A stretch of DNA of 64,000 nt from Oligoflexia bacterium (lineage in GTDB: Bacteria; Bdellovibrionota; UBA1018): positions 1,485,440-1,549,439 of the forward strand of contig CAVWVI010000003.1 in the NCBI GenBank assembly GCA_963758495.1, given 5' to 3'. The notes under the pieces were generated by a model. It did no database searches, was not told the origin of the DNA, and saw only the letters and a program-made list of their open reading frames with translations. This document shows positions 28,210 through 48,556 of the stretch, one piece after another. The position numbers and the translations under genes are program-made. Every line of letters starts with the position of its first letter. The first letter of the stretch is position 1.

Positions 28210-28220
28210 GAGTTAGATTT

Positions 28221-29324
28221 ATGGGCTTTCAATGTGGCATCGTGGGACTACCCAATGTTGGAAAATCGACGATTTTTAATGCATTGACATCAGCTAAAGC
28301 TGAGGCAGCTAACTATCCTTTTTGTACCATTGATCCCAATACTGGGATTGTGAAAGTTCCCGATCCTCGATTAGCGGAAATTGCTAAATATATTCCTCCA
28401 CAGAAGCTTGTGCCTGCCAGTATGGTGTTTGTGGACATTGCTGGATTAGTGAAAGGCGCCTCCAAGGGCGAAGGATTAGGTAATCAATTCTTAGGTCACA
28501 TTCGTGAAACCAATGCGATTGCTCATGTGGTTCGTTGTTTTTCAGATCCTAATGTAATCCATGTTGATGGCTCAGTTGATCCTGTTCGTGATATTTCTGT
28601 GATCGATACGGAGCTCATTTTGGCTGATTTAGATACGATTAGTAAGCGGTTTTCATCCATGCAAAAAGCAGCTAAATCCGGCACTGATAAGAAAGCAGCG
28701 GCAATCATATCCGTATTGGAGCCCGTGAAAGCCGCACTGGAGTCAGGAAAACCAGTGCGCTCTTTGGAGCTGAGTGAAGACCAGTTGGCATTAATTCATG
28801 ACTTTCATCTGATTACCGCTAAAAAGGTGATGTATGTCGCAAATGTGGATGACAATGATATTGGGAAGTCTGAGCCCAATGAGCATGTAAAAAAACTTTT
28901 GGAATATGCCAAAATCGAGGGTAGTCCTGTGGTGCAAATCTGCGGTAAAATCGAATCAGAAATCGCAGAGCTTTCAGAAGATGAAAAAATTTCATTTTTA
29001 AAAGAAATGGGAATGGAAGAGCCAGGACTGAATCGTGTGATTCGTGCAGGATATGAGTTATTAGGGCTGCAAACTTATTTCACCGCTGGAGAAACTGAAG
29101 TTCGTGCTTGGACGATTCAGAAGGGGGCAAAAGCTCCTCAGGCCGCGGGTGTGATTCACACCGATTTTGAAAAAGGATTTATTAAAGCAGAAGTTTATCA
29201 CTTCAATGATTTAATGAAATATAAGACCGAACAAGCGATCCGAGATGCGGGCGCCTTAAAGCTTGAAGGCAAAGAGTACGTGGTTCGCGATGGCGATATC
29301 ATGCATTTCCGTTTTGCCGTTTGA
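28221..29324 (+). CDS. ychF: Ribosome-binding ATPase YchF
   Basis: It has the P-loop [17 protein letters not shown] and a C-terminal TGS-like segment with [28 protein letters not shown]. Confidence 0.96.
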
Positions 29325-32551: not shown

Positions 32552-32626
32552 TCAGGAGTAGCTCAGTGGTAGAGCAGCCGGCTGTTAACCGGCTGGTCGG
32601 GGGTTCGAATCCCTCCTCCTGAGCCA
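32552..32626 (+). tRNA. tRNA-Asn (anticodon GUU)
   Basis: The acceptor is TCAGGAG/CTCCTGA followed by G and CCA. The D-arm is GCTC-AGTGGTA-GAGC. The anticodon stem GCCGG/CCGGC carries the loop CTGTTAA. The T-arm is GGGGG-TTCGAAT-CCCTC. Confidence 0.95.
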
Positions 32627-32638
32627 TTATTCAGCACC

Positions 32639-32681
32639 AAATCCCTCGTAGATCATTGAATCTACGGGGGATTTTTATTTT
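32639..32681 (+). terminator. Hairpin plus T-tract immediately after tRNA-Asn
   Basis: AAATCCCTCGTAGAT (32639-32653) pairs with ATCTACGGGGGATTT (32660-32674) with one G-T pair. TTATTTT follows. Confidence 0.6.
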
Positions 32682-32713
32682 GTGGGTGTGGACGTGGTGC
32701 AGAATGTTCGGTC

Positions 32714-33079
32714 GTGATTTCAGGTACCTATACGATTTGGTGCAGAGGCTCGTTTTTTATGAAATGGAATGAATTGGATCTGAAAATCTCGTTGTCTCCA
32801 TCGCAGGCTGTAGCCATGCAGGCGATGATTGAGAAGTTTCTCGCGAGAAAACAGCACTTTTTTTGTGAGCCGGTCCTTGAGAGCAATACGTTAAAAATAA
32901 ATTCTAGCGACTTCATCAACTTCTTGGATCAGGCGGAATTTGGGAATGAGTTTGATCAGTTCAGATTAAAAGCGGCGGCAGTAAAGGCGATCTGCGCAGC
33001 GAAGGTCCGAAAACGGGACCCTCTTGTAGTCCAACATTATCGACGTTGCGAAGAAATCGTGCGTGAATTAAATCGCTGA
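32714..33079 (+). CDS. Hypothetical protein, the first ORF of island A
   Basis: The ORF opens with GTG at 32714, and a more plausible ATG lies at 32759 (MKWNELD). I recognise no motif. Confidence 0.45.
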   Translation: MISGTYTIWCRGSFFMKWNELDLKISLSPSQAVAMQAMIEKFLARKQHFFCEPVLESNTLKINSSDFINFLDQAEFGNEFDQFRLKAAAVKAICAAKVRKRDPLVVQHYRRCEEIVRELNR

Positions 33080-33101
33080 ACAATATAAGGTTTCAACCAA
33101 T

Positions 33102-34048
33102 ATGATTAGCGAACAGAGGTACATTGCTCGGCTACTTTTCAAGAATAAAGTTCTGAAGAGTGATGGCCAGGCTTTCGAGGACCTTTTCACTGCTATCATG
33201 ACCAAGGCCAATCCCAACTTTACTCCGGTGAAACCTCAGGGGTCAATTGGCGATCGAAAAAATGACGGCTGGGATAGAACAAAGGGGATTTATTACCAAG
33301 TTTATGCGCCGGAAAACCTAACTGCAAAACAATCTGATGCGATCAATAAACTTGAAGAAGATTTTAAAGGCCTCAAGGCTGCGTGGAACGATATTGTTCC
33401 GATTCGAGAATTTCATTACGTTTTGAATGACAAGGGCAAGGGTTCCTATCCGACGCTTGAAGTGGCTTTAGCCAACATTAAGCGTGACCATTCATTGGAC
33501 GAAGCACTGCCATTCCTCATCAAGGACCTCGAGGAGGCGGTTTTCTCTCTTAGTGACGACGTAATTTTTGAAATTATTGGTCACGTTCCGTCGCCAACTT
33601 TAATAGAGAACATCCAATTCTCCGCCTTGAACGAGGTTGTTGATCATCTACATAAGCATGGAAAAGGCCTAACCCGAGACGACGTATTAAATGCTCCTGA
33701 TTTTGAAGATAAAATCAGGATAACGGCTTAACTCAGCCCATCGCGGCTATGTTGCAAACAGCAAGTTATCAGGTCGGGGAAATAGAGCGATATTTCGGGA
33801 TGAACAGCCAATACGCAAAGGATGATTTGAAAGCATACTTTGTGGCGTGCTATCTAGCCGCGAAAAATCAATGGAAGGACGAAGGCGAGTCTACAAGAGC
33901 TGATCAGGTATTCTTTTCTGTTCTCGATCAAGCGGTTCCGAAAAACTCTCGTCCTTATCAGGATGCGGCTCTTGTTGTGATGGCCTACTTTTTTGAGGCT
34001 TGCGATATTTTCGAAGCACCTGGGGGCGGCCATGTTGCTACCCACTAA
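33102..34048 (+). CDS. ABC-3C-like effector component: nuclease-like N-domain plus helical C-terminal domain. It has one frame break.
   Basis: The N-terminal GDRKNDGWD...YYQVYAP resembles a PD-(D/E)xK core. The C-terminal piece ends ...AALVVMAYFFEACDIFEAP. The two ORF-track pieces (33102-33731 and 33749-34048) join if the A4 run at 33711-33714 is read as A5, giving FEDKNQDNGLTQPIAAMLQTASYQ. Confidence 0.6.
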
Positions 34049-34280
34049 ACACACAAAACTGGGAGAGTCGATTTTGGGTTTGGGTTCTTTCGTTCTTGGA
34101 GCGCTGACGAAACCAAAAACAATCGATGAGCTATGGGCCGAGTTTCAAGCTGTGAATAACACCGATGCGTTTCCGGCCCATCATTCATTCGACAATTTAG
34201 TTTTAGCCCTAGATTTTTTGTTCATGACAGGTGTGGTCGCTCAAGAGGAGCGAGGAAAGTTCAGACGTGAAGCTCGTTAG
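34032..34280 (+). CDS. ABC-3C-like small middle component (about 83 aa)
   Basis: The ATG at 34032 overlaps the effector stop (34046-34048). It is a small helical protein (MLLPTKHTKLGESILGLGSFVLGALTKPKTIDELW...FDNLVLALDFLFMTGVV) placed between the effector and the ATPase. Confidence 0.55.
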   Translation: MLLPTKHTKLGESILGLGSFVLGALTKPKTIDELWAEFQAVNNTDAFPAHHSFDNLVLALDFLFMTGVVAQEERGKFRREAR

Positions 34281-35988
34281 GCTTTTTGCAAACAAGCCGA
34301 GTTTTCACCCTGTGAAATTCAACCCCACAGGACTGACGCTCATTCTTGGCAAAGAGGCTGGGTCTGGTGAAAAGAAGAAGACCTATAATGGCGTTGGAAA
34401 ATCGTTAATCATACGGCTGGTTGATTTCTGTTTGGGCTGTAAAGCCATAGAGTCCTTTGAAAAGAATCTGCCTGGCTGGGAATTTTCACTGACCTTCGAG
34501 ATAAATGGAACCGAGCATACTGCCTCCCGGGCTACACTTGCTCAGTCGGCAATAGTCCTTGATGACAAAGAAATAAAACTTGATGAATATAAGAAGTTCC
34601 TCGAAGAAAATGTTTTCGATTTAGAGTCCGACTTATCTCTCTCATTTCGTTCTCTTATTTCGCGATTCCTTCGCCCGAGTAAAGCAGCATATACCAAGCC
34701 CGAGATATTTGGTGCTAAGGAACAGCCATATAACTGTCTTCTGAATAACGGATTTTTACTTGGTCTTGACCCGCATCTAATTAAGGCTAAGCGTGACAAA
34801 AAGAAAGAATTGGATGACACGTTTACCAAAAAGCAAAACTTCGATAAGGACCCAATTCTTCGAGAATTCTATTCTGGCACAAAAGATGCCGATTTAGAGC
34901 TTCAGGCATTGGACGAAAAAATTGCCGCATTAGATCGCAACCTCGCAGTTTTTGATGTAGCTGAAGACTACCATCAAATTCGAGCCGAAGCTGATTTGTG
35001 TTCTAAGAAGACTCGCGACCTCGAAAACACAGCGGTCGTTTATCAAAATTCCATTTCTAACATTGAGCAATCACTTAAGACTCGCGCAGATATCCCAAAA
35101 GAACGAGTTATTCGGCTTTACGAGGAAGCGCAATTTCATTTTTCTGATAAAAATCTTCGCTCCCTAGACGAAGTTCTCGAATTCCAAGCCACCCTTCTTG
35201 CTAATCGCAAGAAAAGACTGCTCGAGCAGAAAAAAGCGCTCTCGGAACGTCTATCTAAGGCCGAGCAAGAGAGAAAGGAATTGGGAAAGAAGCTCGATGA
35301 GGCTCTAAAATACCTAAATTCACACAGGGCGCTTGATGATTTTGTAGCAGTGTCGAATCATCGAAACGATTTAAATGCACGAGTAGGAAAAATAAGGGAT
35401 TACCAACAACTCATCAAACAATATGAATTGAGATTAGAAGAAATCAAGATCGACTTAAAGCGCCAAAACATCAAAGCCCAGAGATATCTTGACGAACACC
35501 AAGCGGCAATAGATCAGAACACCAGTCTTTTTCGAGTTCTCGCGAAGCGTTTCTATCAAGAAAAACAAGGTAGAATTTCGATTTCAAACAACGACGGTGA
35601 AAATCAGCAACGCTTTAACATTGAAGCCAAGATCCAAGACGACGCTTCTGATGGAATCAACGAAGTAAAAATTTTCTGTTTTGACCTCACCATCCTCCTT
35701 GCTCGACAGGGACATAAGGTTGACTTTCTATTTCATGACAGCCGACTTTTTGCCGACATTGATTACCGTCAGCGCGAAACCCTTTTTAGGGTGGTACATG
35801 AATATAGCAATGCTAAGGGATTTCAATACATTGCCTCCGTAAATGAAGATCAGATAAATTCCTTCAAACAGAATCTGACCGAGCAGGAATACAAGGAGAT
35901 CATCACCGACAGCGTGACATTGGAACTTACCGATGAATCTCCAAAGAATAAGCTGCTAGGCATCGAGATTGATATGGATTACGAATAA
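34267..35988 (+). CDS. Coiled-coil ABC ATPase (DUF2326-like) of an ABC-3C-like system
   Basis: The N-terminal half-site is LTLILGKEAGSGEKKKTYNGVGKSLIIRLVDFCLG, with the Walker A lysine in GVGKS. About 350 aa of K/E/L/Q-rich predicted coiled coil follow. The C-terminal half-site is ASDGINEVKIFCFDLTILLA...VDFLFHDSRLFADID (signature-like motif plus Walker B and D-loop). A GTG at 34267 overlaps the middle-component stop. The ORF track opens at 34231. Confidence 0.7.
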   Translation: MKLVRLFANKPSFHPVKFNPTGLTLILGKEAGSGEKKKTYNGVGKSLIIRLVDFCLGCKAIESFEKNLPGWEFSLTFEINGTEHTASRATLAQSAIVLDDKEIKLDEYKKFLEENVFDLESDLSLSFRSLISRFLRPSKAAYTKPEIFGAKEQPYNCLLNNGFLLGLDPHLIKAKRDKKKELDDTFTKKQNFDKDPILREFYSGTKDADLELQALDEKIAALDRNLAVFDVAEDYHQIRAEADLCSKKTRDLENTAVVYQNSISNIEQSLKTRADIPKERVIRLYEEAQFHFSDKNLRSLDEVLEFQATLLANRKKRLLEQKKALSERLSKAEQERKELGKKLDEALKYLNSHRALDDFVAVSNHRNDLNARVGKIRDYQQLIKQYELRLEEIKIDLKRQNIKAQRYLDEHQAAIDQNTSLFRVLAKRFYQEKQGRISISNNDGENQQRFNIEAKIQDDASDGINEVKIFCFDLTILLARQGHKVDFLFHDSRLFADIDYRQRETLFRVVHEYSNAKGFQYIASVNEDQINSFKQNLTEQEYKEIITDSVTLELTDESPKNKLLGIEIDMDYE

Positions 35989-35995
35989 GCGTCGA

Positions 35996-36776
35996 TTACT
36001 CAATCAACGAAATCCCCTCCCGCAACTGTTCTTCACTCTTCAAGTCCTTCTGAATTTGCTCCCATAGGTGGATGTACCTTTTAGTGGTGCTGATATCCGC
36101 ATGACCGAGCACAAGTGAGCACAGAAAAATATTTCCCATGACCATTCCCGTAAATTCTGTGGCAAACGTATGTCGGCAACAGTGTGGCGTATAAGGCCCG
36201 ATCTTATGACGACTACAGATCGACCTGAGATAATTACCAAAGACGTTTTTGTTCAAACCGTCAAAGAGCAGGTAGTTCTTTGGATCAGCTCCGTAAGGTT
36301 GTTTCTTGAAAAGCTCCTTCTGCTGAAGCCAGAGCTCGGCCAGAATGTTGAACGTTTCTTTATTGAGAATTGGGATCGTCCGTCCATGCTGGGACGAGAT
36401 AACCCTTTTTCCTTTGAGCGGTTTCCGAGCGACGATTCCATCGGCGCTTCTGAGCGCAAACCTGCATCCGGGTTGGCTTTCCAAAACAAGATAGCCAAAA
36501 TACTGGATCCCCTCTTTCTTGAGTTGGGCAGCCAGGCTTTTATTGGAGATCTCACCCTTGAACAGGTCATCCAATGAAAGACCAAGCCCTTCATTGATCC
36601 TCAGACCGGTATCAACCAGAACTTTGAAGAAGTAGGCCGCTAACTTGGATTGCTCATGTAGGGCGGGATAGATGATTTCCTTCTCCGATGGTGAAATCAC
36701 GGACTCCGCGTCTTTCTGGTTTTCAAGGTGTCTTGCGAATTGTGGGCATTGATCGAGTCGCTCGATCTTGTTCTTA
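35996..36776 (-). CDS. Tyrosine recombinase (short or N-terminally truncated), abutting the IS21 end
   Basis: Catalytic residues are R in VDTGLRINEGLGL, HxxR in HCCRHTFAT, and H/Y in LGHADISTTKRYIH. The apparent TTG start codon of the ORF-track model (36779-36781) lies inside the IS terminal repeat. Confidence 0.75.
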
Positions 36777-36930
36777 TGCAAAATTTCATTATAGGGATCA
36801 CCCCGATTTCAAGTTAGGGATCACCTCAATTTCATCGTAGGGATCACCCTGATTTCACTATTGGGATCACCCCTCGGAGCGCCAAAACAGGCGGGTGTAT
36901 AGTCCTCTTCAATTAAAAAGGAGAGAACTG

Positions 36931-38442
36931 ATGGCCCGGAAAGGATTAACTGTGGCGCGTGTAGAGGATATTAAAAGACTCATTAGAGAGGGACAATCAA
37001 ACAAGTTTATAGCGCGAGCTCTGAAGTGTCGGAGGACACTAGTTGCAGATCTTAGAACCCAAATGGATCAACCTAATGAAGAATTAGCGAGTCCAGCTAA
37101 AAGCCCACTTTGGATTGAACTTGTAGACTGGATAGAGATAGCTAAAGAAATTTCCCTAGGATTTGAACTCCTAAGAATATGGGAGGAGAAGGCAAGCCCA
37201 GTCACGAGTTATTCGAATTTCTGGAAGACTCTGCAGCGTAAGTTTCCCCACCTACTCAAAGCAACAGTGACCTTAAGAGACTTCGCTCCCGGAAGTCAAT
37301 GTGAGGTGGACTATGCCGGAGATAAGATTGAATGGATCAATTCTCAAGGTGAGATTCATTATGCGCATATTTTTATCGGGGCACTGGCTTTCAGTCAGTA
37401 TTTGTTTGCCTGGGCCTCTGAAGATGAAAAGAGTCGAAACTGGCTATTGGCCCATCAAAAAATGTACACTCACTTCCAGGGTGTCCCAGCCGTTACAGTC
37501 TGTGATTGCCTTAAGAACGGTGTAATTAAAGCCCACCGATATGATCCAGATCTGAATCCAGCTTATACTGAATTGGCAACTCATTACGGAACAGCAATTG
37601 TTCCAGCAAGGCCCCGACGCCCAAAGGACAAGCCTATCGTCGAAGGAGCTGTGAAATTGATCATGAGACTATTCAGGTGGAACTATAGACGACACACGTT
37701 CTTCTCTCTTGATGAAATTAACAGAGCACTTTCTGAAGTGGTGAAGCAGATCAATGAAAGAAGTCATACACGATTTAAAACTTCTCGATTGGAGCGCTGG
37801 CAGCTTCTTGAAAAGAAGGCTCTGAAGGCTCTCCCTGATTCTCCATTTGAATCCATTGAATGGACAAAAGCAAGAGTCCACCCTGATTCCACCATTTCTG
37901 TGGATCAAGTATTTTACTCAGTGCCATACCTTTATCGGGGAAAAGAGGTACGAGTTAAGTTAACTCAGAATCAGGTTGAGATTTTTTATGAAAATCAAAG
38001 ACTAGCCATCCACGCCAGACACCGAAGACATGCCTCAAGAGTGATTCAAAATGATCATTTACCTCCTAATTCACAAGCATATCGTGAAGCTACGCCACAG
38101 AATCTATTATCACAAGCAAGATTTATTCACTCAGATCTAAGGTCTTTAGTGGATGACTTATTTAATGAAAATGCACTTGGGAATATTAGAAGAGTGCAGG
38201 GACTTCTGAGGGTTGCTCAGGAGGAGATCAAAAGCTCCGGAAGGGCATTGGCAGAACCTCGAATTATAAATGCCATTCAGCAGATGAGACGCTTTGAAAA
38301 AATCCGAGTGACCTACTTCCGAGAATGTCTCAATGGTCTTAAGAAACACCAATTTTCTCAGGCTCAGGATTTTAATATCCAGAGAATGCCTGGAAACCCC
38401 ATGCTTCGCCAGGCAAATGCGAAGTCTGAGGTAGCAACCTAA
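36931..38442 (+). CDS. istA: IS21-family transposase IstA
   Basis: It has an N-terminal HTH (VEDIKRLIREGQSNKFIARAL) and a DDE region (CEVDYAGDKI, VTVCDCLKNGV, DKPIVEGAVK). The ORF track opens at GTG 36895. Confidence 0.9.
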   Translation: MARKGLTVARVEDIKRLIREGQSNKFIARALKCRRTLVADLRTQMDQPNEELASPAKSPLWIELVDWIEIAKEISLGFELLRIWEEKASPVTSYSNFWKTLQRKFPHLLKATVTLRDFAPGSQCEVDYAGDKIEWINSQGEIHYAHIFIGALAFSQYLFAWASEDEKSRNWLLAHQKMYTHFQGVPAVTVCDCLKNGVIKAHRYDPDLNPAYTELATHYGTAIVPARPRRPKDKPIVEGAVKLIMRLFRWNYRRHTFFSLDEINRALSEVVKQINERSHTRFKTSRLERWQLLEKKALKALPDSPFESIEWTKARVHPDSTISVDQVFYSVPYLYRGKEVRVKLTQNQVEIFYENQRLAIHARHRRHASRVIQNDHLPPNSQAYREATPQNLLSQARFIHSDLRSLVDDLFNENALGNIRRVQGLLRVAQEEIKSSGRALAEPRIINAIQQMRRFEKIRVTYFRECLNGLKKHQFSQAQDFNIQRMPGNPMLRQANAKSEVAT

Positions 38443-38473
38443 TATTGCCGCAATCAATAAAATAAGGAGAATA

Positions 38474-39238
38474 ATGATTATGAGTCCAACTCAAATCAGA
38501 CAACTATTGTCTGAGCTCAGGTTAAATGGAATTGCAGACACACTCGAGAAAACCCTAACAGATGGCACTCAGGCTGGGTGGAGTTACTTAGAGTTTTTAA
38601 ATGTCTTACTTCAAGCAGAGTCAGACCATCGGAACAAAAAGAAAATAGAGAGCCGAATCAAGAATTCCAAGTTGAAGCGATCCGCATCCTTCGAAGACTT
38701 TGACTTCACAGCCAAAAGAAGTATTACGAAAACGCAGGTAAAAGAACTACATTCTATGAAATGGCTCGAAGATGGCCGACCACTGCTCCTCATCGGGCAA
38801 ACTGGCGTGGGTAAAACATATCTATCCCAAGCGATTGGACTCAGAGCATGTCAGTTGGGAAAAACGGTGATCTTCCTGTCGGCAAGCACATTCCTAGAGC
38901 AACAAATCCTTGCGAGAAGTACCCATAGCTATCTCAAATTCAAAGAAAAGCTCACAAAGCCCGACTTGCTCATTATTGACGATTTTGGACTTAGAAAATT
39001 TAATCCATTGGAGGCTGAAGACTTGAGAGAGATCTTAGAAGAGAGATCCTATGGGAAATCCACTCTTGTCACTACTCAGTTACCCCTGGAACACTGGGCT
39101 GAGGTTCTTCCAGATCCAGTTCTCTCAGAAGCAATCATTGACCGAATTGAGGGGATGGCTGTTCAGATAAAAATTACTGGCGAGAGTTATAGACGAATAA
39201 AAGCAAAAAAACTTGATCAACTTAAAGAGACGCAGTAA
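38474..39238 (+). CDS. istB: IS21-family helper ATPase IstB
   Basis: Walker A is LLIGQTGVGKTYL and Walker B is LLIIDDFG. Confidence 0.92.
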   Translation: MIMSPTQIRQLLSELRLNGIADTLEKTLTDGTQAGWSYLEFLNVLLQAESDHRNKKKIESRIKNSKLKRSASFEDFDFTAKRSITKTQVKELHSMKWLEDGRPLLLIGQTGVGKTYLSQAIGLRACQLGKTVIFLSASTFLEQQILARSTHSYLKFKEKLTKPDLLIIDDFGLRKFNPLEAEDLREILEERSYGKSTLVTTQLPLEHWAEVLPDPVLSEAIIDRIEGMAVQIKITGESYRRIKAKKLDQLKETQ

Positions 39239-39332
39239 CAATCGTCGCTTCGCTCCGAGGGGTGATCCCTACGATGAAATTGAGGTGATCCCTAACTTGA
39301 AATCGGGGTGCTCCCATCTCTGAAATTGCGCA

Positions 39333-41956
39333 CTTTTCAGTAAGGTAAGTAGAAAGGTCAGCTATAATCTCCTGCTTGTGCCCTGCAAAGATTCCGAGAA
39401 AGTAAGTCAGAGTTCTCATGCCCAATGAAGTGCATCGTTTCGTTAGTTCTAGCTTTCCTTCTCTATTTAATGATCCTTGGTATGTGCGCAGAATCTGGCC
39501 TGCAACCTGAATTGTTTTAAGCGCCTTGTTTACTTCACTCAGTGTATCGACCTTGGATTGCTGATCTGAACTAAAGATTTCGTCGATCCGATCAGAGCTC
39601 TCTGCCACGGTAGCGCGGTTTTCTTTTGGGCTCTCAATTCCTAATTGTAGTTTTGGACCTTTACCTCCTGCCAGATCATTGGCGAACTGAGTATCCTTGT
39701 CGAGATCGCAGGGATTTAAGTTTGAAAAAAGACCGTCACAAGTTTTCTTTATTTCGGATATCAGGAAATCGCTTTGGGAAAAGTAGCTCACAAAAATAAT
39801 AGTATTGGCATAGTCCTCTCTGTAAAGGTTTTCACACATTCCACTTATAGTTACTTTAGTTTCTTCTTTCTCAATGTGGTCTGCGAGATATCTGCCCAAA
39901 AAGTATGTATAATAGTATCTGTATTTAAATTTATAGTTGCCGTGCACGCTTTCCAATATGAAACAATTTAATAGATAACCTTTAAGCTCACTGTATGGAA
40001 CTGAAAGAGCATATATTCGACAATGATTGTTATGAAACTGTTCAAGGTCGTCATCGGACAGTGAAATTACGTTACTATTATGTAAATTAAATGCTAAATT
40101 ACAAAGAAATCCTCTCAGAATCCCAAGATCTATAGACGTTGTGTTCCCCTTAACTAATGACTCTGTCACCAAGAAGTCAAAAAGGTGACCATAAGAACCT
40201 GATGCGGTTGTATGCTGCTTGCTAGTCTCTACCTGTTGAAGAAGAGCCAAGATGTAAATCGGATAAGATGGCACCAAGTCTTTTCCAATTATCATAGTAA
40301 TTATTCGATTAATTTGATCTGAGTGGCTTGCAAACTCGCTTGGAGCATATGTGTCCTCTCTGCCCAAAAGTAACCATCGTTCAATCAGCTCTAGCCGCTG
40401 TTTGTGTCCGAATGGAAGAATTTCAAGTTGGCTAAAGTCCGCAAGGAAGGTTTTTGTTCTTCCTAAGGCAGCCAATTCCTGAATCTTTAGAGAGGTGTCT
40501 CCAAGAAGAATAACTTTTCCAAACAGTCCAGAAAGAACCGTTAGTAATTTTTCTATCCCATCCGGATTTAGGAACAACTTATCAAAGTTATCGACAATTA
40601 TAACTTTATTACTCTGATTGAGTTGAACGTAGGTGTTCCATTCAGTATCGAGATAGAAGTTAGAGAAAGTTTGCTCTGAAAGTCTCAAGAAGGAATCTCT
40701 GGTTAGATGAGAATTGGTGAGTTTTTGACCATCTACTATGAGAGGAACAAATTCCTTTTCACGCAGGACAGAAAAGCTTCGTTTGCCAAGACAAGTCTTG
40801 CCGGAGTCAAGATCTCCAAAAATAATTATTTTTTCGTGCTCGATTAGGAATTTATGGAAATTTTCAGGACGAAGGCGTTCTTCTTCGGTATTTTTTGATA
40901 GATGTTGAGTTAGGATCTTCAGTGTTGGAAGGATGAAAATATCATTTAGATAAATCGTACTTTTTGCGGGGTGACTGAAATTCGCTCCGAGGTCATTGAT
41001 ATAGCGGATAGAGGCGTCAGTTAATTGGAAGGTGTTCTTTAGTAGATGTGAGTTTCGATTGAATGGAAGTTCCGTGGGAGTGTACCCCTCGATGGGAACA
41101 TATTCAGTTTTTTTCCATTTAAAACGGAATCTCTTCTGCGTTTTATTGCTGAGATCAACGAGAATAGCGGCGAATTCACTGCTATTTGGATTAGAGGTTT
41201 CATTGAGAACGCCCCCTTCAAAATAATGGTTTTCAATATCTTCACTTTTTTTGAGATAGATTGAGGGATTGTGTTCGTGGCCTGTCACTATAACGTCTGA
41301 GGTTTGTTCCACTATCTGTTTAAAGTGGGGCATAGTTTCCGGACTAAACCATGGATAAGGATGGTGGAAAGCGGTAATCACCAATCGGAAGAGATCGATT
41401 TTAGTTCATTTGTCGGAAATGCAAGGGTACCTGGCGATTCGTCTAATTGAGACATCCAGGCCGAATTAATGCAGCGAATCGCTACCTTTTTCTCTTCAAA
41501 TATTTGTTCTTCAATCCAATGCAATCTATTTTGAAACACATGGCCATTCATTTCTTCGTAAAATGAGAAAAAGTTAGTCTGTGGTTCTAAGCATGAACCA
41601 AGGTATTGAGGCTTGATTGAGCTTGGTGACTTGAGGTGGCCTAAGATCAGATCTCTAACGTCATCTTGCTGAAAGTGACAATCATGATTTCCCGGAACAA
41701 CAAAAAAAGAAATGGATTTTTTTGTGGCTTCTTGGAGTGCATCACGAATCCGAGATAATAAGTCAGCACAGACCTTATACTCTTCAGCTTTTCCAGAAAA
41801 AGCTAGAACGCCGCTTACAATTAGAAGAATTCCTGAAATACTTGTGTCGGAGCAAATCGGCAGGATCGCTGAAATGAGTTTATCTACTTTTTGGAAAATC
41901 GGTTCACGTTCGTTTTTTATATGAATGTCACTGAGATGTAATATCAATAGTTGCAT
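39333..41956 (-). pseudogene. Metallophosphoesterase-P-loop NTPase fusion protein. It has one frame break, and its 3' end is interrupted by IS21 copy 1.
   Basis: Calcineurin-like motifs are HLSDIH, GNHD, AFHHP and GHEH, split over the two ORF-track pieces 41378-41956 and 39222-41384. The pieces join if the T4 run at 41399-41402 is read as T5. Walker A is IIIFGDLDSGKTCLGK and a Walker B-like motif is KVIIVDNFD. A long helical C-region follows. The last 36 codons of the ORF-track model are IS-derived. Confidence 0.7.
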
Positions 41957-42036
41957 GAGTGTCCTCTAGATGTCGTCCCCAAGTAGGGCAGAGCCATGCT
42001 ACCTCGTTTTGGAGAACGTCCAATAGGCCTATAGGC

Positions 42037-42056
42037 TATAGGTTGATATAGGTTGA
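42037..42056. promoter_or_regulatory. Tandem 10-bp direct repeat TATAGGTTGA x2, within four ATAGG copies (42023-42052), in a divergent promoter region
   Basis: The repeat was read directly. It lies about 100 bp upstream of abiEi, between that gene and the oppositely oriented NTPase gene. Confidence 0.4.
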
Positions 42057-42159
42057 GGGTTTTGGCAATCCAGTTCAATTCCCGAAAGTGCTTACATTTC
42101 ATAGATCTAAATATAAACCCCATATATACTAAGGGGTTTATTGACGTGCTGCAAAGACT

Positions 42160-42813
42160 ATGAGATTATATCCCTTAATGAGTAAGGGCTATAAAGAACA
42201 AAAACATCAAAATCCGCGGGATAACGAGCGACGTCTTTTTGAGATTGCTGATTCTCTACAAGGTTTTTTTACCGCCAAACAGGCGGTAGCTGCTGGTTAT
42301 AGCGAAAAGAATCACGCATTCCACGTTCACGCCGGAAATTGGGTTCGGGAACTCCACGGAGTCTATCGTCTTCGAAGTTATCCACAGAGCACTGAGTCGG
42401 ATCTAGTGCTTTGGTCCCTTTGGTCAAGAGGTAAGGATGGTATTCCCCATGGGATTTATTCCCATGAAACGGTGCTCAGTCACTACGATCTTTCCGATAT
42501 CAATCCTGCCCGTTTGCATATGACAGTACCTACTCGTTTTAAAAGAATGGTAAAACCTCCTGAAAATCTCGTTCTTTATAAGAGTGACCTTCCAAAGGAA
42601 GACATCCGCCAAATGCATGGCTATCAAATGACTACAGTGAAGCGAGCTCTCGAAGATATGTTTCAAGCAGGAACTTATCCAAAAGATCTCATTGAAAGTG
42701 CAGTCGCAGAAGCTCTAAAGTCAGGACACCTTACAGTTTCCGAACTTGAAAACTCTCAAGTTCTAAAGCCCTTTCAAAAATTTCTTCAAACAAGAAAGCA
42801 ACTGGCATCATGA
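42160..42813 (+). CDS. abiEi: AbiEi-family type IV antitoxin / transcriptional regulator
   Basis: FFTAKQAVAAGYSEKNHAFHVHAGNWVRELHGVYRL and SHETVLSHYDLSDINPARLHMTVP match the AbiEi N-terminal pattern. It overlaps the downstream gene by 4 nt. Confidence 0.8.
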   Translation: MRLYPLMSKGYKEQKHQNPRDNERRLFEIADSLQGFFTAKQAVAAGYSEKNHAFHVHAGNWVRELHGVYRLRSYPQSTESDLVLWSLWSRGKDGIPHGIYSHETVLSHYDLSDINPARLHMTVPTRFKRMVKPPENLVLYKSDLPKEDIRQMHGYQMTTVKRALEDMFQAGTYPKDLIESAVAEALKSGHLTVSELENSQVLKPFQKFLQTRKQLAS

Positions 42814-43703
42814 ATTCTGAGGAAAAGAGCTATATGTCGGCACGATCCTTTTCGCAGGCCTTAGCTGAAAAGCTGCGTGCCCAAGTGAAAAATCAACCTG
42901 GTTATGACATTGTACGGATTCGTCGCCAAGTAGCATTCGATCGGCTTTTAGCTAGACTCTTTGTTGAAGAGCCCTCTCCCTGGATTCTCAAAGGCGGATA
43001 TGCGATGGAACTTAGATCTAATCGAGCGAGAGCTACTCGTGATATCGATTTATCGCTCCCCGATGGAAAATTCTTAGGTTTAAAGGACGAAGAGGTTTTA
43101 GGAATCGCACTTCAGCGAGAGATACAGAATCAAGCCTCAAAGGAACTTGGGGATTTTTTCCATTTCATTATCAGTGAGCCTATTTTGGATTTAGAAGCAG
43201 CTCCTTATGGTGGTGCTCGTTTCCATATTGAAGCACGTCTTGACGAAAGAACATTTGCGAAGTTTCATCTGGATGTCGGAGTCGGCGATGCTATTTTAAA
43301 GCCTCTTGATGTATTACAAAGTCATGATTGGCTAGCTTTTGCGGGTATCCCCGCCAGTTCCTATCCAACTCTATCGAAAGAACAGCAATTTGCAGAGAAG
43401 GTACATGCTTATACCCTTCCAAGGGATGAGAATCGAAGTAACTCAAGGGTAAAAGATCTGATTGATCTATTGCTTTTAATTCAGAGCAATGAACTTGATC
43501 GATCACGTCTTAGAGCTGCGCTTGAGGCAACTTTTATGAGGCGGGAGACTCACTCTCTTCCAGCGGAATTTCCCGATCCCCCTTTACACTGGGAAAAGCC
43601 ATTTCAACATCTCGCTAAGGAAGTTGGGTTAGATGAGAATTTGGCTGCAGGTGTTAACATTGTAAGACGCTTTTTTCATGAGACGACTTATGAATCAAAA
43701 TGA
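42810..43703 (+). CDS. abiEii: AbiEii/AbiGii-family nucleotidyltransferase toxin (DUF1814)
   Basis: Motifs WILKGGYAMELRSNRARATRDIDLSL and FHLDVGVGDA are present. Confidence 0.82.
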   Translation: MNSEEKSYMSARSFSQALAEKLRAQVKNQPGYDIVRIRRQVAFDRLLARLFVEEPSPWILKGGYAMELRSNRARATRDIDLSLPDGKFLGLKDEEVLGIALQREIQNQASKELGDFFHFIISEPILDLEAAPYGGARFHIEARLDERTFAKFHLDVGVGDAILKPLDVLQSHDWLAFAGIPASSYPTLSKEQQFAEKVHAYTLPRDENRSNSRVKDLIDLLLLIQSNELDRSRLRAALEATFMRRETHSLPAEFPDPPLHWEKPFQHLAKEVGLDENLAAGVNIVRRFFHETTYESK

Positions 43704-43809
43704 GCTTTGGAAATACGATTTTTCACGGAAACTTCAAGTAGGCGGTCGGCCCGGCTGGTTGCATCATTCTGCTCGGGTCAGTCATATTATCTGGCCTAGG
43801 GAAGTTTAA

Positions 43810-43959
43810 TTGAGGTCAAGAATGACAGATTTTTTTCGCTATTTAGCGGTGAATCCAGGACAAACATTTGTTTTTCTCGGCACTATGTTAACTGTCTTTG
43901 CTGGATTTTATGTGACCTATTCTCAAAATAGAGAACAAATCAAGCAGAAAAATGAGATC
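43810..43959 (+). pseudogene. Small membrane-protein ORF truncated by IS21 copy 2
   Basis: The ORF-track model 43810-44013 runs into the IS terminal repeat at 43960. It has one hydrophobic segment (FVFLGTMLTVFAGFYV). Confidence 0.3.
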
Positions 43960-44094
43960 TGGCTAGTGCCAATGAATCTTGCCGGTCCAGTGCCAATTAA
44001 ATTTGCCGGTTAACTGAAATAGTTAACAGTACCTGGAGGTTTTGCCTCCAGTCGTCTCTCGGGTAGAACTCGCTCTATTGGAGTTAACCGGAGT

Positions 44095-45604
44095 ATGATT
44101 TTAATGACTGAGTTCAAAAGGATTATTCAGCTAAGGAATGATGGCAAAACCCAAAAAGAAATTGGAATTGAACTAGGGTTGTCCGAAAGGACTGTGAGAA
44201 ATTATCTTAAAAGTGGGTCAGTTCCGTCTTATACACGGACTGTATCTACCCGCCCTGATCCCCTGTCTGAAGCTCATCTCCAAATTGCACATGAGATGCT
44301 TCGCCAATACCCAAAAACCCAAGTAAAGAGCATTTTGTCACGACTGAGAAGGGAAGGTTACAAGGGGAGTTATCGGACCCTTCTGAGACGGTTGGAGAGT
44401 ATAACCAGGGTATCGGATCCGGCGCCAGTATTCTTTCAACGCGAACATTTCCCAGGTGATGTTATGGAGGGAGACTTTACCGAGCTTTCTGGGATTTCAA
44501 TCGGTGGCGAAATTTTGAAGATCCAACTCTGGGTAGTTCGGCTTATTTTCAGTGGCAGAATTTCAGCTACGGCATTTTTTAATACTACTTGGGAGTGCTT
44601 TCTAGAAGGCAGTGTGCAGGCTTTTAATTCTTTTGGTGGCATAGCCCAGCGCTATCGCCTCGATAATTTATTATGTGGAGCTCCACATAATTAAGGACTC
44701 AACATAAAATTTAAGTCCTGTGGTAAAACTCTTGGGTCGTGGGGAGCGAAAAATTACGGCCCGCTTTGCTCAATTTCAAAATCATTATGGGTTTAAAGCC
44801 GATTTCTGCAACCCAGCGTCAGGATGGGAGAAGGGATCGATTGAAAGTACAGTTGGGCATCTTAAAATACGAATCCGTGAAGTCATTGGCCTCGGGAATC
44901 TTCACTTCCGAGACCTAGCGTCATTCCAGCAATTGGTGAACAAAGTTGTAAATGAACAGAATGCGGAAGCTGCAGTGGAAGAGAAGTTTAACCAGGAACC
45001 CTTGATACTCCTTCCTCGAGAGCCATTCCCTGCCTTTGAAGAAGTCGTAGTAAATATTGATAAGTATTCGACTTTCAGTCCTCTGAAGAATGGCCATCGG
45101 TATTCTGCTCCTAGCCATTTAAGTGGTCTTTCCCTCGAAGCCCGGATCTATGCTTCGAGGATTGATCTCATTTATGAATCGAAAGTAGTTGCCACCCATT
45201 GCAGGCTATGGGGTAAATCTAACCAGACTAAGATCGAAGTTGTCCATATTATCCGCGAACTCTGTAAGAAACCTGGAGTCGTCCTGGAGTGGAAACACCG
45301 CCATGTTCTCTTCTCTCATCCCATTTGGAATCGCTTTTACGAAAGATTGAAAGTCCAGCCTGCCAACGGTCCGACAGCCTTAAAGGAATACTTAAACTGT
45401 TTAAAATATATGGCTGAATATGGCCGTGAAAACGTCACTGCGGCTATGGAGCTCTGCCTCGAGGGCAGCAACGAATTATCATTACTAAAACTAAAGGAGG
45501 TCCTTACCAATGAACCTGTAGCTGACATTCTCAACATAAAACCAGCTCGTAGAGATCTTAATCAATACGACGAATTATTTAGCCTCCAAAGAAAGGAAAA
45601 TTAA
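44095..45604 (+). pseudogene. istA: IS21-family transposase IstA, disrupted by a 43-bp insertion
   Basis: Pieces 44095-44694 and 44720-45604 are out of frame. Removing 44671-44713 gives ...RYRLDNL-SPVVKLLGRGERK..., which matches the IstA DNLxxAV region. EKGSIESTVG supplies the DDE glutamate. Confidence 0.8.
44671..44690. repeat. 20-bp perfect palindrome TTATGTGGAGCTCCACATAA inside the 43-bp insert
   Basis: Read directly. The insert is bounded by AATTTA copies at 44665-44670 and 44708-44713. Confidence 0.9.
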
Positions 45605-45606
45605 TA

Positions 45607-46386
45607 ATGGCCACCAGCCAAAATATGCAAATACACCTTGAGTTGAATTTAAAAACACTAAAACTTCCCAGTATCCTCAGATCCTATCAAAAGGTGAGCG
45701 AAGCCGCCGCTGAAGAGGGTCTCACGTGTGAGCAATACCTGTATCGCCTAACCGGCATCGAAGTTGAGAAGCGAAAGGAGAAAAAAATCAATGCACTCAT
45801 ACAACATGCAAAATTCCCCCTTAAGAAGCTACTGAGTGATTTTAAGTTTGAAGAAACACCCACTATCAGCAGGCAAACCTTTATTGAATTGGCTGAAGGG
45901 CATTTCTTAGCTGACGCCAAAAATGTCCTACTTTATGGAGCACCAGGAGCAGGCAAAAGCCATTTGGCCATGGGGTTGGCCAGGGAGCTGTGTCTCAGAG
46001 AAAAAAAAGTTGTCTTTTTTACTGCCTGCGATCTTACTCAACGGCTAATTAAAGAAAAAAACAATCTAAGACTCTCTGAGTTTTTGAAAAAGCTGAACCG
46101 ATATGACTTGATCTGCATTGATGAACTTGGCTTTATCCCATTTGAAAGAACAGAAGCTGATCTCCTCTTCCAGTGCTTCAGTGCCTGCTACGAAAGGACT
46201 TCAATTCTTATTACGACAAATTTGGTTTTTAGTGAATGGGACCAAATATTCAAAGATACAAAAACCACTACTGCAGCAATTGATCGCCTGATTCATCACG
46301 CTTATTTATTTGATATCAGTAGCGAGGAAAGCTTCAGGAAGAAAGAAGCCAGAAAAAACATGGACCAAAAACAACAAAAATGTTAG
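45607..46386 (+). CDS. istB: IS21-family helper ATPase IstB
   Basis: Walker A is LLYGAPGAGKSHLA and Walker B is LICIDELGF. Confidence 0.9.
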   Translation: MATSQNMQIHLELNLKTLKLPSILRSYQKVSEAAAEEGLTCEQYLYRLTGIEVEKRKEKKINALIQHAKFPLKKLLSDFKFEETPTISRQTFIELAEGHFLADAKNVLLYGAPGAGKSHLAMGLARELCLREKKVVFFTACDLTQRLIKEKNNLRLSEFLKKLNRYDLICIDELGFIPFERTEADLLFQCFSACYERTSILITTNLVFSEWDQIFKDTKTTTAAIDRLIHHAYLFDISSEESFRKKEARKNMDQKQQKC

Positions 46387-46465
46387 CCGGAAACCGGCAA
46401 ATTTAGTTGTCACTCACCGGCAATTTTTATTGGCACTCTCCAATAAATAATAAGTAGAGTTCGTC

Positions 46466-46879
46466 CTACGCAACTTCACCGAGTTCATGTGAGTAAGTCA
46501 GCTTTGGCATCTCAATAACAATCCGACGATAATTAAAAGCAAGCTTCGGCGCTTTAGAACCCTTGGCATCACCGCTCTCCTCCAATGTAATAAATCCCAT
46601 AGCTTCCAGTGCAGTGCAGTCTCGCTGCACATTACCGAAGTCACGATCTAAGAGTTGAGCAAGCTGATAAATAGAAGTAGGCTTCTGGCTAATGATCGCT
46701 GCGAGAATGACTATCTTCTGTTCAGTCATGAATTTTTGATAATCCACCACTGAGTTGAACAAGATCGTATCCTTTTTCCCAATGCTAGGTTTTTGAGCTT
46801 TCAATGCAGCTTGTGTCCGAGCTTTGAAATCATCCCATTTCTCAAAACGAATATAGAGTGATTTATCTTTATTTAGCAT
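46466..46879 (-). CDS. HTH DNA-binding protein (HVO_A0114-like), a putative antitoxin/regulator
   Basis: The winged-helix region is KIVILAAIISQKPTSIYQLAQLLDRDFGNVQRDCTALEAMGFITLEE. The tail is KAPKLAFNYRRIVIEMP. It overlaps the upstream gene by 11 nt. Confidence 0.65.
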   Translation of the reverse strand: MLNKDKSLYIRFEKWDDFKARTQAALKAQKPSIGKKDTILFNSVVDYQKFMTEQKIVILAAIISQKPTSIYQLAQLLDRDFGNVQRDCTALEAMGFITLEESGDAKGSKAPKLAFNYRRIVIEMPKLTYSHELGEVA

Positions 46880-47180
46880 CTTTCAAAATCCTTTCTACTT
46901 CCTGGTAGAATAGAGCCAGTGCCGCATTGTGGTCAGTTACTGGAAGCTCTACACGAACTTCTTTGTCTTCCGGTAACTCAGTGTGCATATGGAAACCAAA
47001 AGGTTCATGATTATCCACTAGTAGCCTCGGAAAGTTACCTTCCACGTCTATCAAGACAAACTTAGCTTTAATTCCGTGAGGGAACTTCTCGCTTACCGGA
47101 ACTTCGAGTGCATACAGGACAACCCTGTAACGGTTGTTGATGGCAAATTTCTCGTCGAGGATAATCCGCGTTGCACTCAC
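46869..47180 (-). CDS. DUF6516/TumE-like putative toxin
   Basis: The 103-aa ORF contains YRVVLYALEVPVSEKFPHGIKAKFVL and LLVDNHEPFGFHMHTE. This resembles the xDNxH...HxH core of that family as I remember it. Confidence 0.55.
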   Translation of the reverse strand: MSATRIILDEKFAINNRYRVVLYALEVPVSEKFPHGIKAKFVLIDVEGNFPRLLVDNHEPFGFHMHTELPEDKEVRVELPVTDHNAALALFYQEVERILKDAK

Positions 47181-47394
47181 CTCTAAATCATAGCTTAAAA
47201 CATATGTTCAGTCACCATATATCTAACAAGGATCATTTGTCCGCTATATCGGTCGAGATGGGGCGCATTTGGGGCGTGTAACTGTGTACATGTGTAGCGC
47301 ATCGTATCGGAGTGTATCGTTCGAGCGGTTTCTAAGTATCTAATATTTAAAAATATTCCAAATCTATCAAGAAGTTAGAAACTGGATCAAAATC

Positions 47395-47411
47395 TCCCTC
47401 CTCCTGAGCCA
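47395..47411 (+). repeat. Direct repeat of the tRNA-Asn 3' end, the att-like junction between islands A and B
   Basis: TCCCTCCTCCTGAGCCA is identical to 32610-32626 and 50010-50026. Including the following AATTA, it is identical over 22 nt to 50010-50031. Confidence 0.9.
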
Positions 47412-47584
47412 ATTAAATCGAAACCCTCGGAAAACTTGAATGTTTTCCGGGGGTTTCGTGTTCTAGGCTTCTCGAAATTTCATTTTTGCGGGCCTTTGCG
47501 GGCCATGATCGGGTCGATCATTTGCCTCGAAAAATTTACTGCTTCAAAATGGACGACAACTTCTCGTCCATTTTTTTTTGGGTT

Positions 47585-48556
47585 TCAGCAATCTGCTGAT
47601 CCCGGTTGTACATTATCAACATTACCGTCAGCAAAAACCGGCTGCCCCCCAACATCTTTAGCTACATCTCTAGTTAATTTGGTTAATCTAGGTTGAGTAA
47701 CTTTAGCTTGCTCATACACATGGTTCAATAACTCCTTCCTTAGCTCTCCCCCATGCTCTTTGTCTTGAGATTTTGCTATAATTTCCGGCGAGATTACCTT
47801 CCCTTGTGAATCACGAACCTCTTGATTTACAGTTTTTTTATCTACTTGAAATGGGTTTTTATGATTTACACCACCTGTTGTTGCACTGGAATTTAATCCG
47901 TCTTTTACTGATTTGCCAGTGGTGTGAAATTCTTGCATTCTTTGAAGATTTCTTTGGGCTTTGCCTGGATCATTGAAGGTTCCATAAATGGGATTGGAAT
48001 TAATTTCACCATTTGATTTTGTTCTATTATGTATATTTTGAAATTTACTATCATTCCGAAGTTCGCGAACCTCGCTTATAGTGCCATTTGGACTTTTTAA
48101 TTGAGCAGAGACTGTCGAATTCTCATTTAGGCCCGTTTCAGTGTGGCGATATGAATGCTTATTGTCGATCGAGTTGTTCATCTCATTTTGAAAAAAGTGG
48201 AGTTCCTTTTCAGATCCAAACTTATGAGTCACTGACACAGAATTACCATTATGAAGCTGCATATCAATTTTAGTGGAAACACTTCCTGTCGGAGTCGCAG
48301 GATCAGGATGTACGATCATTTTTTTTATAGGTTGTTTTTCTAAACTTTCTTTTCTTTTAATGGAGGAAGTCGTTTTCAATAGGGGTAATCTTTTTCTTGT
48401 TTCGTTAACCCTTGAAGACCTTGGGCCGGTTTTAGGTTGTCCAGGCTGGTCAGATGAATTTGTTGCAAACACCTGTTTAATTACCAGGTCATTACGAGAA
48501 ACATAGACAGCGACGAAAAGTAAAAAAAAGCGAATTAATTTTTTGCAGAGTAACAT
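47585..48556 (-). CDS. Secreted low-complexity protein (N/S/K/T-rich), function unknown
   Basis: It has a signal-like N-terminus (LIRFFLLFVAVYVS). I recognise no domain motif. Confidence 0.55.
   Translation of the reverse strand: MLLCKKLIRFFLLFVAVYVSRNDLVIKQVFATNSSDQPGQPKTGPRSSRVNETRKRLPLLKTTSSIKRKESLEKQPIKKMIVHPDPATPTGSVSTKIDMQLHNGNSVSVTHKFGSEKELHFFQNEMNNSIDNKHSYRHTETGLNENSTVSAQLKSPNGTISEVRELRNDSKFQNIHNRTKSNGEINSNPIYGTFNDPGKAQRNLQRMQEFHTTGKSVKDGLNSSATTGGVNHKNPFQVDKKTVNQEVRDSQGKVISPEIIAKSQDKEHGGELRKELLNHVYEQAKVTQPRLTKLTRDVAKDVGGQPVFADGNVDNVQPGSADC

Follow-up and report, generated by a model that had tools for sequence, protein, structure and literature searches.

Does the 64,000-nucleotide stretch of Oligoflexia bacterium DNA analyzed here (contig CAVWVI010000003.1, positions 1,485,440 to 1,549,439; hereafter the window, meaning the whole stretch) carry a new kind of single-gene defense system, or the remains of a known one? 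The question is raised by its minus strand from 41956 to 39333, in which the initial annotation had seen a fusion of a metallophosphoesterase with a P-loop NTPase, interrupted by a frame break and an insertion sequence (IS), and in a combination that it could assign to no named system. The combination does have a name. We consider it very probable that what remains here is a decayed gene of the DS-8 anti-phage family, which corresponds to candidate system PDC-S60 of PADLOC, and this judgment takes in the STAND-type mechanism proposed below for the intact protein.

Assignment to the DS-8 family

After repair of the frame break, the predicted protein scored above the cut-off of the NCBIfam equivalog for this family (NF053861 DS8_antiphage: 821.7 bits, cut-off 790, E = 7.6e-247, profile positions 1-873 of 994), and most of its length was matched by the PDC-S60 models of PADLOC-DB v2.0.0 (PDLC05050: E = 1.6e-76; PDLC05051: E = 2.5e-30). 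Matches of this strength lie far beyond chance, as do those to Pfam Metallophos and nSTAND_NTPase4, each of which exceeded its gathering score. DS-8 is a validated single-protein anti-phage system of E. coli (WP_032203427.1, encoded by a 3045-nt gene and described as a metallophosphatase with a NACHT module), published in the DefensePredictor study (DeWeirdt, Mahoney & Laub, Science 2026 / bioRxiv 2025; PMC13092281). It protects E. coli MG1655 against phage, and each of the substitutions D52A, N84A, and K375A abolishes that protection (PMC13092281). The suggestion that the gene has the organization of a STAND-type single-gene anti-phage protein is thus borne out by the family cut-off, by the PDC-S60 match, and by the validation of the E. 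coli member.

The likeness to DS-8 extends to the same three-part single polypeptide of ~1010 residues, and the equivalents of N84 and K375 are kept (N90 and K387). The difference is that the window copy has Val at the D52 equivalent, a frameshift, and a deletion of the last ~138 residues, and is therefore nonfunctional. Accordingly, the architecture of a single ~1000-residue polypeptide with three parts is found in the reconstructed ancestral frame, whereas the present copy is split and truncated.

The family is already known. Its combination of domains was anticipated by Kibby et al., whose list of bNACHT effectors includes calcineurin-like phosphoesterases, and it has an entry in PADLOC, experimental validation in E. 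coli, and an equivalog in NCBIfam; several relatives carry the NCBI product name 'STAND family AAA ATPase'. PDC-S60, in contrast to DS-8, is a computational candidate, and a literature search for 'PDC-S60' found no paper text naming it. The locus is best annotated as a DS-8-family (PDC-S60) anti-phage pseudogene in a tRNA-Asn defense island and not as a new system, and has little importance beyond that. It illustrates how a defense gene decays in an island, here by a missense change in the active site, a frameshift, and a deletion mediated by an IS.

One ancestral gene across a frame break

The minus strand carries two open reading frames (ORFs), 41378..41956 (192 residues) and 39222..41384 (720 residues), that overlap by 7 nt. 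The initial annotation had taken them for pieces of one gene of more than 870 codons, to be joined by reading the T4 run at 41399-41402 as T5. When the run is read in this way, a single frame of 875 codons extends from 41956 to 39333, and across the junction it reads ...PTNELKIDLFRLVITAFHHPYPW... We compared this frame with P0002, the closest intact homolog of the repaired protein (1011 residues, 59% identity, metagenome-derived). In a tblastn search with P0002 as query, the alignment came in two frames, one covering P0002 residues 1-189 at 41956..41384 and the other residues 190-873 at 41384..39333; the break is therefore real relative to the homologs. Its position is within the catalytic domain, between the GNHD and HHP motifs, and not at a domain border. 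Every full-length relative is one ORF across the break point of the window, so that the alternative raised at the outset, of two genes that are separate in relatives, finds no counterpart among them. Judged by these alignments, the minus strand from 41956 to 39333 represents one ancestral gene.

Residues 874-1011 of P0002, its last ~138, had no tblastn match anywhere in the 64-kb window, and the homology stops exactly at 39333, at the right-end boundary of an IS21-family element.

An active-site change at codon 50

One lesion had been missed by the initial annotation. The GD metal-binding motif, SGD[IL]AFSG in the family, reads SGVLAFSG in the window, and the Asp replaced by Val at codon 50 is present at that column in 190/190 full-length homologs. 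The alignment has 34 columns conserved at ≥90%, and the window deviates at this one only, matching the other 33. Because conservation is otherwise perfect, the sequence indicates that decay of the copy is likely to have been recent.

To relate these positions to the mutated residues of DS-8, we used P0199, a 1014-residue E. coli protein with D, N, and K at 52, 84, and 375, as a stand-in whose identity with DS-8 we infer, because WP_032203427.1 itself was absent from the 15 members listed for the matching E. coli/Klebsiella cluster of 231, to which P0199 belongs. V50, N90, and K387 of the window align to D52, N84, and K375 of P0199, in the GD, GNHD, and GK[ST] motifs, respectively; in P0002 the counterpart of V50 is D48. 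Two of the three residues essential in DS-8 are therefore present, and the third, the D52 equivalent, is V50. This missing residue bears on activity and not on ancestry.

Three lesions, which we describe as independent, can be read from the window copy: the frameshift, the loss of ~138 C-terminal codons, and Val50 for Asp. The copy is a pseudogene and cannot work.

The IS21 element and the lost 3' end

The gene was said to run straight into an IS21 insertion that removed its native C-terminus. The boundary at 39332 is indeed exact and the C-terminus is missing; the event, however, is an IS-associated deletion and not a plain insertion. The IS21-family element has imperfect terminal inverted repeats of 73 nt (89% matched, 36777-36849 and 39260-39332), and its ends read TGCAAAATTTCA and TGCGCAATTTCA, i.e., TGC...GCA. 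Its transposase passes the cut-off of NCBIfam NF033546 transpos_IS21 (185.6 bits, cut-off 160), and its second gene matches IstB_IS21 (6e-58). No target-site duplication was found around the element, the flanks GTTCTTA and CTTTTCAG being different, and the two flanks belong to different truncated genes, the DS-8 gene on the right and a tyrosine recombinase fragment on the left. For these two reasons, we conclude that a deletion or rearrangement accompanied or followed the IS21 insertion and removed the 3' end of the DS-8 gene. The recombinase fragment has probably lost its N-terminus, and probably did so in the same event that took the C-terminus of the DS-8 protein. A second IS copy, as might explain an inversion, was not present in the 64-kb window.

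Domains and predicted fold

All of the motifs named in the initial annotation were found. Those of the phosphoesterase are HLSDIH (residues 7-12) and GNHD (89-92) in the first piece and AFHHP (196-200) and GHEH (226-229) in the second, and Pfam Metallophos (PF00149) matches residues 5-231 (32.7 bits, cut-off 21.5). The metallophosphoesterase motif set (DxH, GD, GNH[DE], H, GH, GHxH) is complete except for GD, which reads GV. In the middle domain, the Walker A motif GDLDSGKT occupies residues 381-388 and the Walker B-like IIVDNFD lies around D456; G381, G386, K387, and D456 are invariant across the homolog alignment.

We built an AlphaFold2 model for the homolog P0002, not for the window copy, from a 73-sequence alignment (mean predicted local distance difference test score, 88.4; predicted template-modeling score, 0.70). 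It has a beta-sandwich phosphoesterase to about residue 290 (sandwich over 2-286) and an alpha/beta P-loop domain at ~340-530, and is all-helical from there to the C-terminus, as had been expected of the C-terminal region; residues 874-1011, those lost from the window copy, form six confident helices. When this model was compared with the Protein Data Bank (PDB) by Foldseek, the best match was the YydD-YydB integrative model 9a6c_B (2.7e-14), with NLRC4, NOD2, NLRP3, and NLRP9 (~1e-8), GpdQ (8e-8), SMPDL3B (8e-7), Rv0805 (9e-7), Mre11-Rad50 (2e-6), and EfAvs5 and Avs4 (~3e-5) also matched. A profile search of PDB sequences returned GpdQ (9e-8), Lmo2642 (2e-7), the NLRP14 NACHT domain (1e-4), and SbcD (2e-4). 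From the Foldseek matches to NLR proteins and the agreeing profile search, the P-loop region is an NLR-like STAND module, which upholds the earlier reading of a P-loop NTPase; it is NACHT-like by its fold and its nSTAND4 signature, not by the Pfam NACHT model.

The match to 9a6c_B hints that yydB-yydD of B. subtilis may be related to DS-8 as a pair of separate genes. A literature search on YydB/YydD found nothing linking the pair to defense.

Several known systems resemble parts of this protein. It shares with the bNACHT proteins (Kibby et al.) and Avs1-5 (Gao et al.) the logic of an effector, a STAND NTPase, and a C-terminal sensor, with fold matches to NLRC4, NOD2, NLRP3, Avs5, and Avs4. The comparison with Avs made in the initial annotation holds for this logic and not for the family itself: the PADLOC scan gave no hit to an Avs or bNACHT model at E <= 1, Pfam NACHT was below threshold, and the protein has a separate nSTAND_NTPase4 signature. 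Membership in Avs (AVAST 1-5) was rejected, given the lack of any PADLOC Avs match at that level and a similarity to Avs4/Avs5 that is remote and seen in the fold only. The N-terminal domain has its best sequence and fold matches in GpdQ, Rv0805/Icc, and SMPDL3A/B, with which it shares the dinuclear-metal motif set. These, however, are stand-alone enzymes without an NTPase or a sensor, and because identity is 12-14%, their substrate specificity is not transferable.

Relatives, their neighborhoods, and exchange of the effector

Relatives numbered 80 in one homology search and 116 in another, and almost all are single proteins of 1000-1050 residues with Metallophos and nSTAND_NTPase4. In a scan of one genome per species, 151 genomes encoded a relative; the scan used patterns drawn from a 6-sequence alignment and missed the window's own genome, whose motifs VPGNHDCH and TAFHHPYPW differ from the patterns. 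Relatives occur in Nitrospinota, Verrucomicrobiota, Acidobacteriota, Chloroflexota, Bacillota, Bacteroidota, Planctomycetota, Myxococcota, and Proteobacteria; an intact homolog from Nitrospinales is 36% identical.

Among 150 neighbor proteins (the two nearest ORFs on each side at ~40 loci), no conserved partner gene was found. The commonest families were phage integrase (7), HsdM (3), PIN (3), N6_Mtase (2), and the type I specificity subunit (2); transposases and GIY-YIG also occurred, and the remainder were unrelated genes, none found more than once. Such a mixture suits a mobile defense gene that stands alone, not a housekeeping operon. A conserved context outside islands would have weakened the defense reading, and what was found instead is variable neighborhoods with integrases, type I restriction-modification genes, PIN, and transposases.

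In one relative, P0181 (874 residues), a TIR domain replaces the phosphoesterase, while the NTPase and C-terminal region are kept (24% identity over ~700 residues, E = 5e-60). Because this homologous chassis carries TIR instead of the metallophosphoesterase, the N-terminal domain appears to be an exchangeable effector module, and P0181 offers direct comparative evidence in support of treating it as one. Within the nSTAND4 / DS-8 lineage, P0181 is a naturally occurring exchange of effectors. TIR-nSTAND4 relatives of this kind are thus homologous to the window protein in the NTPase and C-terminal region and differ from it in the effector.

Proposed mechanism and substrate

What has been demonstrated, for E. 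coli DS-8 only, is phage protection that needs D52 and N84 of the phosphatase and K375 of the Walker A motif (PMC13092281). Since bNACHT and Avs proteins share this architecture, and in view of the TIR swap, we propose that the intact ancestral protein of ~1010 residues most likely acted like other bacterial NLR/STAND immune proteins. Its all-helical C-terminal region would sense a phage-derived trigger, upon which the NACHT-like ATPase would bind ATP and drive oligomerization, and oligomerization would in turn activate the N-terminal calcineurin-like metallophosphoesterase. The enzyme would then abort the infection by hydrolyzing an essential nucleotide metabolite at its phosphodiester or phosphoanhydride bonds. 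Its likeliest targets would be nicotinamide adenine dinucleotide (NAD+) or the pools of (deoxy)nucleoside di- and triphosphates, (d)NDP/(d)NTP, with a cyclic nucleotide or nucleic acid as alternatives.

The DS9_1 (DS-9A) phosphoesterase model matches residues 4-172 of the window protein (6.8e-12), and this match gives the window domain no more than an indirect link to Calcineurin-CE. The Calcineurin-CE effector family was reportedly set out by Burroughs and Aravind in NAR (Nucleic Acids Research) in 2023. In the PUA-Calcineurin-CE-HAD (PUA-Cal-HAD) system, Calcineurin-CE converts (d)NDP to the corresponding monophosphates, (d)NMP, and cleaves NAD+ to nicotinamide mononucleotide and AMP, with collapse of dNTP and abortive infection (PMC12871103). 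DS-9, as published, consists of a metallophosphatase gene and a HAD phosphatase gene, and from the matching two-gene descriptions we take PUA-Cal-HAD to be probably the same system as DS-9. The likeness to DS-8 is a homologous phosphoesterase domain in the effector position of an immune protein. PUA-Cal-HAD differs in having a PUA-like sensor and filament assembly where DS-8 has a STAND NTPase, and in being made of two genes, one for the HAD partner, whereas DS-8 has no partner. Because of the DS9_1 match, of the PUA-Cal-HAD activity, and of the fact that calcineurin-like phosphoesterases are now counted among NAD+-depleting immune effectors, we rate depletion of nucleotide pools somewhat higher than cyclic-nucleotide cleavage as the probable activity of DS-8.

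Alternative explanations

Several points count against the account given so far. The single-base frameshift falls within a homopolymer, where an assembly error could have produced it. The Pfam NACHT model (PF05729) did not reach its threshold in the repaired protein (15.3 bits vs. 26.7, E = 0.018); the window protein is only ~25% identical to P0199, and trigger and substrate may differ in its clade; and a PADLOC model named 'Effector / Endonuclease' matches residues 3-242 of the N-terminal domain (5.8e-14), which leaves room for a nuclease. The authors of DS-8 themselves suggest cyclic-nucleotide cleavage, by analogy with SMPDL3A, and not depletion of nucleotide pools (PMC13092281).

As to the condition of the locus, an error of sequencing or assembly in the homopolymer would mean that the gene is a single ORF in the organism, with the IS-associated truncation and D50V as its only damage. 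The break does lie at or beside the A4 run, and the match at all 33 other highly conserved columns suggests very recent decay; yet the public gene call from the same 1.68-Mb contig (P0001, 719 residues) has the same break, and we think an error rather improbable. Even if it were one, the pseudogene call would hold, since D50V and the loss of ~138 C-terminal residues suffice for it. That the two ORFs encode separate working subunits, a small phosphoesterase and an NTPase, in a two-gene arrangement like that of B. subtilis YydB-YydD, can be given hardly any credence: the 7-nt overlap, a TTG start at 41384, and the rank of 9a6c_B as best PDB match of the P0002 model (E = 2.7e-14) are compatible with it, but the break parts DxH, GD, and GNHD from HHP and GHEH within one catalytic domain, full-length relatives are all single ORFs across the break with none seen to be split there, and the metal-ligand Asp and the C-terminus are lost. 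A programmed frameshift or functional split gene was rejected on the position of the break inside the catalytic domain and on the lack of a relative split there. A housekeeping phosphoesterase-ATPase without a role in defense, suggested by generic source names such as 'metallophosphoesterase' and 'CpdA', is the least credible reading of all. It is contradicted by the published phage-challenge data on the E. coli member (PMC13092281), by the patchy distribution across phyla and the variable neighborhoods rich in mobile and defense genes, and by the window copy itself, which shares a tRNA-Asn island with AbiE and a DUF2326 module and is tolerated as a pseudogene. It is also conceivable, though very unlikely, that the clade uses a trigger or substrate unlike that of DS-8 and that D50V records selection against a self-toxic effector before further breakage; if true, the locus would be a natural record of the cost of autoimmunity in a Calcineurin-type STAND system.

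As to the activity of the family, an Mre11/SbcD-type nuclease that degrades DNA or RNA, in place of a hydrolase of small nucleotides, has the PADLOC 'Effector / Endonuclease' match in its favor; SbcD and Mre11 also appear in the sequence and fold searches, and one homolog is named 'DNA repair exonuclease SbcCD nuclease subunit' in its source. Nevertheless, GpdQ, Lmo2642, Rv0805, and SMPDL3B rank above Mre11/SbcD in these searches, no Mre11-type capping or DNA-binding domain was detected, the domain matches the model of the DS-9A phosphoesterase, and PUA-Cal-HAD, which resembles DS-9, acts on nucleotides and NAD+, so that we consider a nuclease unlikely, albeit worth keeping in mind. We put slightly less trust in degradation of a cyclic-nucleotide signal, in the manner of SMPDL3A with cGAMP. 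The DS-8 authors compared DS-8 with SMPDL3A by AlphaFold3 (PMC13092281), and our best fold matches include SMPDL3B and Rv0805, a cAMP phosphodiesterase, but such matches do not discriminate between candidate substrates. Moreover, the neighborhoods hold no cyclase partner, so that a STAND protein acting alone would have no obvious source of the signal, and the TIR swap in P0181 is more in keeping with an effector that is toxic or depleting than with a signal quencher.

Features of the locus and of the tRNA-Asn island

The features of the window that bear on the gene, and those of the island around it, are listed in Table 1.

Table 1. Positions in the window of the DS-8-family pseudogene, its parts and lesions, and the surrounding island
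Feature	Position	Strand	Details
DS-8-family gene remnant (pseudogene)	39333..41956	-	875 codons after +1 repair; metallophosphoesterase, NACHT-like STAND NTPase, and most of the helical C-terminal region
Calcineurin-like metallophosphoesterase (effector) domain	41060..41956	-	Residues ~1-300; interrupted by the frameshift; from Pfam, motifs, and fold
Codon 50, GTT (Val), in the GD motif	41807..41809	-	One-base change from GAT; Asp invariant in the family
Homopolymer (A4 on the coding strand)	41399..41402	-	One-base loss the simplest cause of the frame break; break somewhere in ~41384-41402
P-loop STAND (NACHT-like) NTPase core	40368..40940	-	Residues ~340-530; Walker A K387 at 40797-40799; Walker B D456
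Pfam nSTAND_NTPase4 (PF24406) signature	39897..40064	-	Residues 632-687; 5.3e-13, 49.3 bits, cut-off 27
Retained all-helical C-terminal (presumed sensor) region	39333..39896	-	Last ~138 residues of the family absent
Truncated frame continuing into the IS end	39222..39332	-	36 IS-encoded codons and stop; within ORF 39222..41384
IS21-family element	36777..39332	+	2556 bp; istA 36895-38442, istB 38474-39238; multi-repeat terminal inverted repeats; only copy in the window
Tyrosine recombinase fragment at the left IS end	35996..36776	-	Pfam Phage_integrase profile positions 67-168 only; frame open at the boundary; sole start codon inside the IS
First element, defense island	32627..47411		14.8 kb; bounded by tRNA-Asn repeats
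Second element	47412..50026		2.6 kb; bounded by tRNA-Asn repeats
ABC-3C-type module, four or five genes	32714-35988	+	Small ORFs 32714-33079, 33102-33731, 33749-34048, and 33993-34280, then the DUF2326 protein
AbiEi/AbiEii pair, intact-looking	42160-43703	+	PADLOC 2.1e-63 and 2e-86; directly upstream of the DS-8 pseudogene, divergently transcribed
Second IS21-family element	44095-46386	+	istA split into ORFs of 199 (helix-turn-helix) and 294 (Mu-transposase C-terminal domain) residues; istB intact

The last 17 nt (TCCCTCCTCCTGAGCCA, 32610-32626) of a tRNA-Asn gene at 32552-32626 recur exactly at 47395-47411 and 50010-50026. These direct repeats look like attachment (att) sites that delimit a tandem pair of integrated elements. 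The first of these contains the DUF2326 module, the recombinase fragment, IS21, the DS-8 pseudogene, AbiEi/AbiEii, and the second IS21-family element, in agreement with the earlier placement of the gene in a mobile island between an ABC-3C-like module and AbiE. The terminal DUF2326 protein of the module has 585 residues and matches PADLOC PDC-M68B at 9.3e-99. The module appears intact, and its layout, hypothetical proteins followed by a DUF2326 protein, resembles DS-30 in the DefensePredictor tables. The second IS21-family element had no DNA similarity to the first by blastn, and is probably also decayed.

Outside the island, the housekeeping genes for Pth and YchF (27622-29324, plus strand) encode proteins that are singletons at 90% identity among 15 billion proteins, the host lineage being apparently without close sequenced relatives. 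Two paralogous hybrid signaling proteins of 1262 and 1451 residues are encoded on the plus strand at 51159-54947 and 57262-61617, both with CheB methylesterase, CheR methyltransferase, PAS, HisKA, HATPase, and receiver domains, and a HipA-family kinase gene lies between them at 55687-56985.

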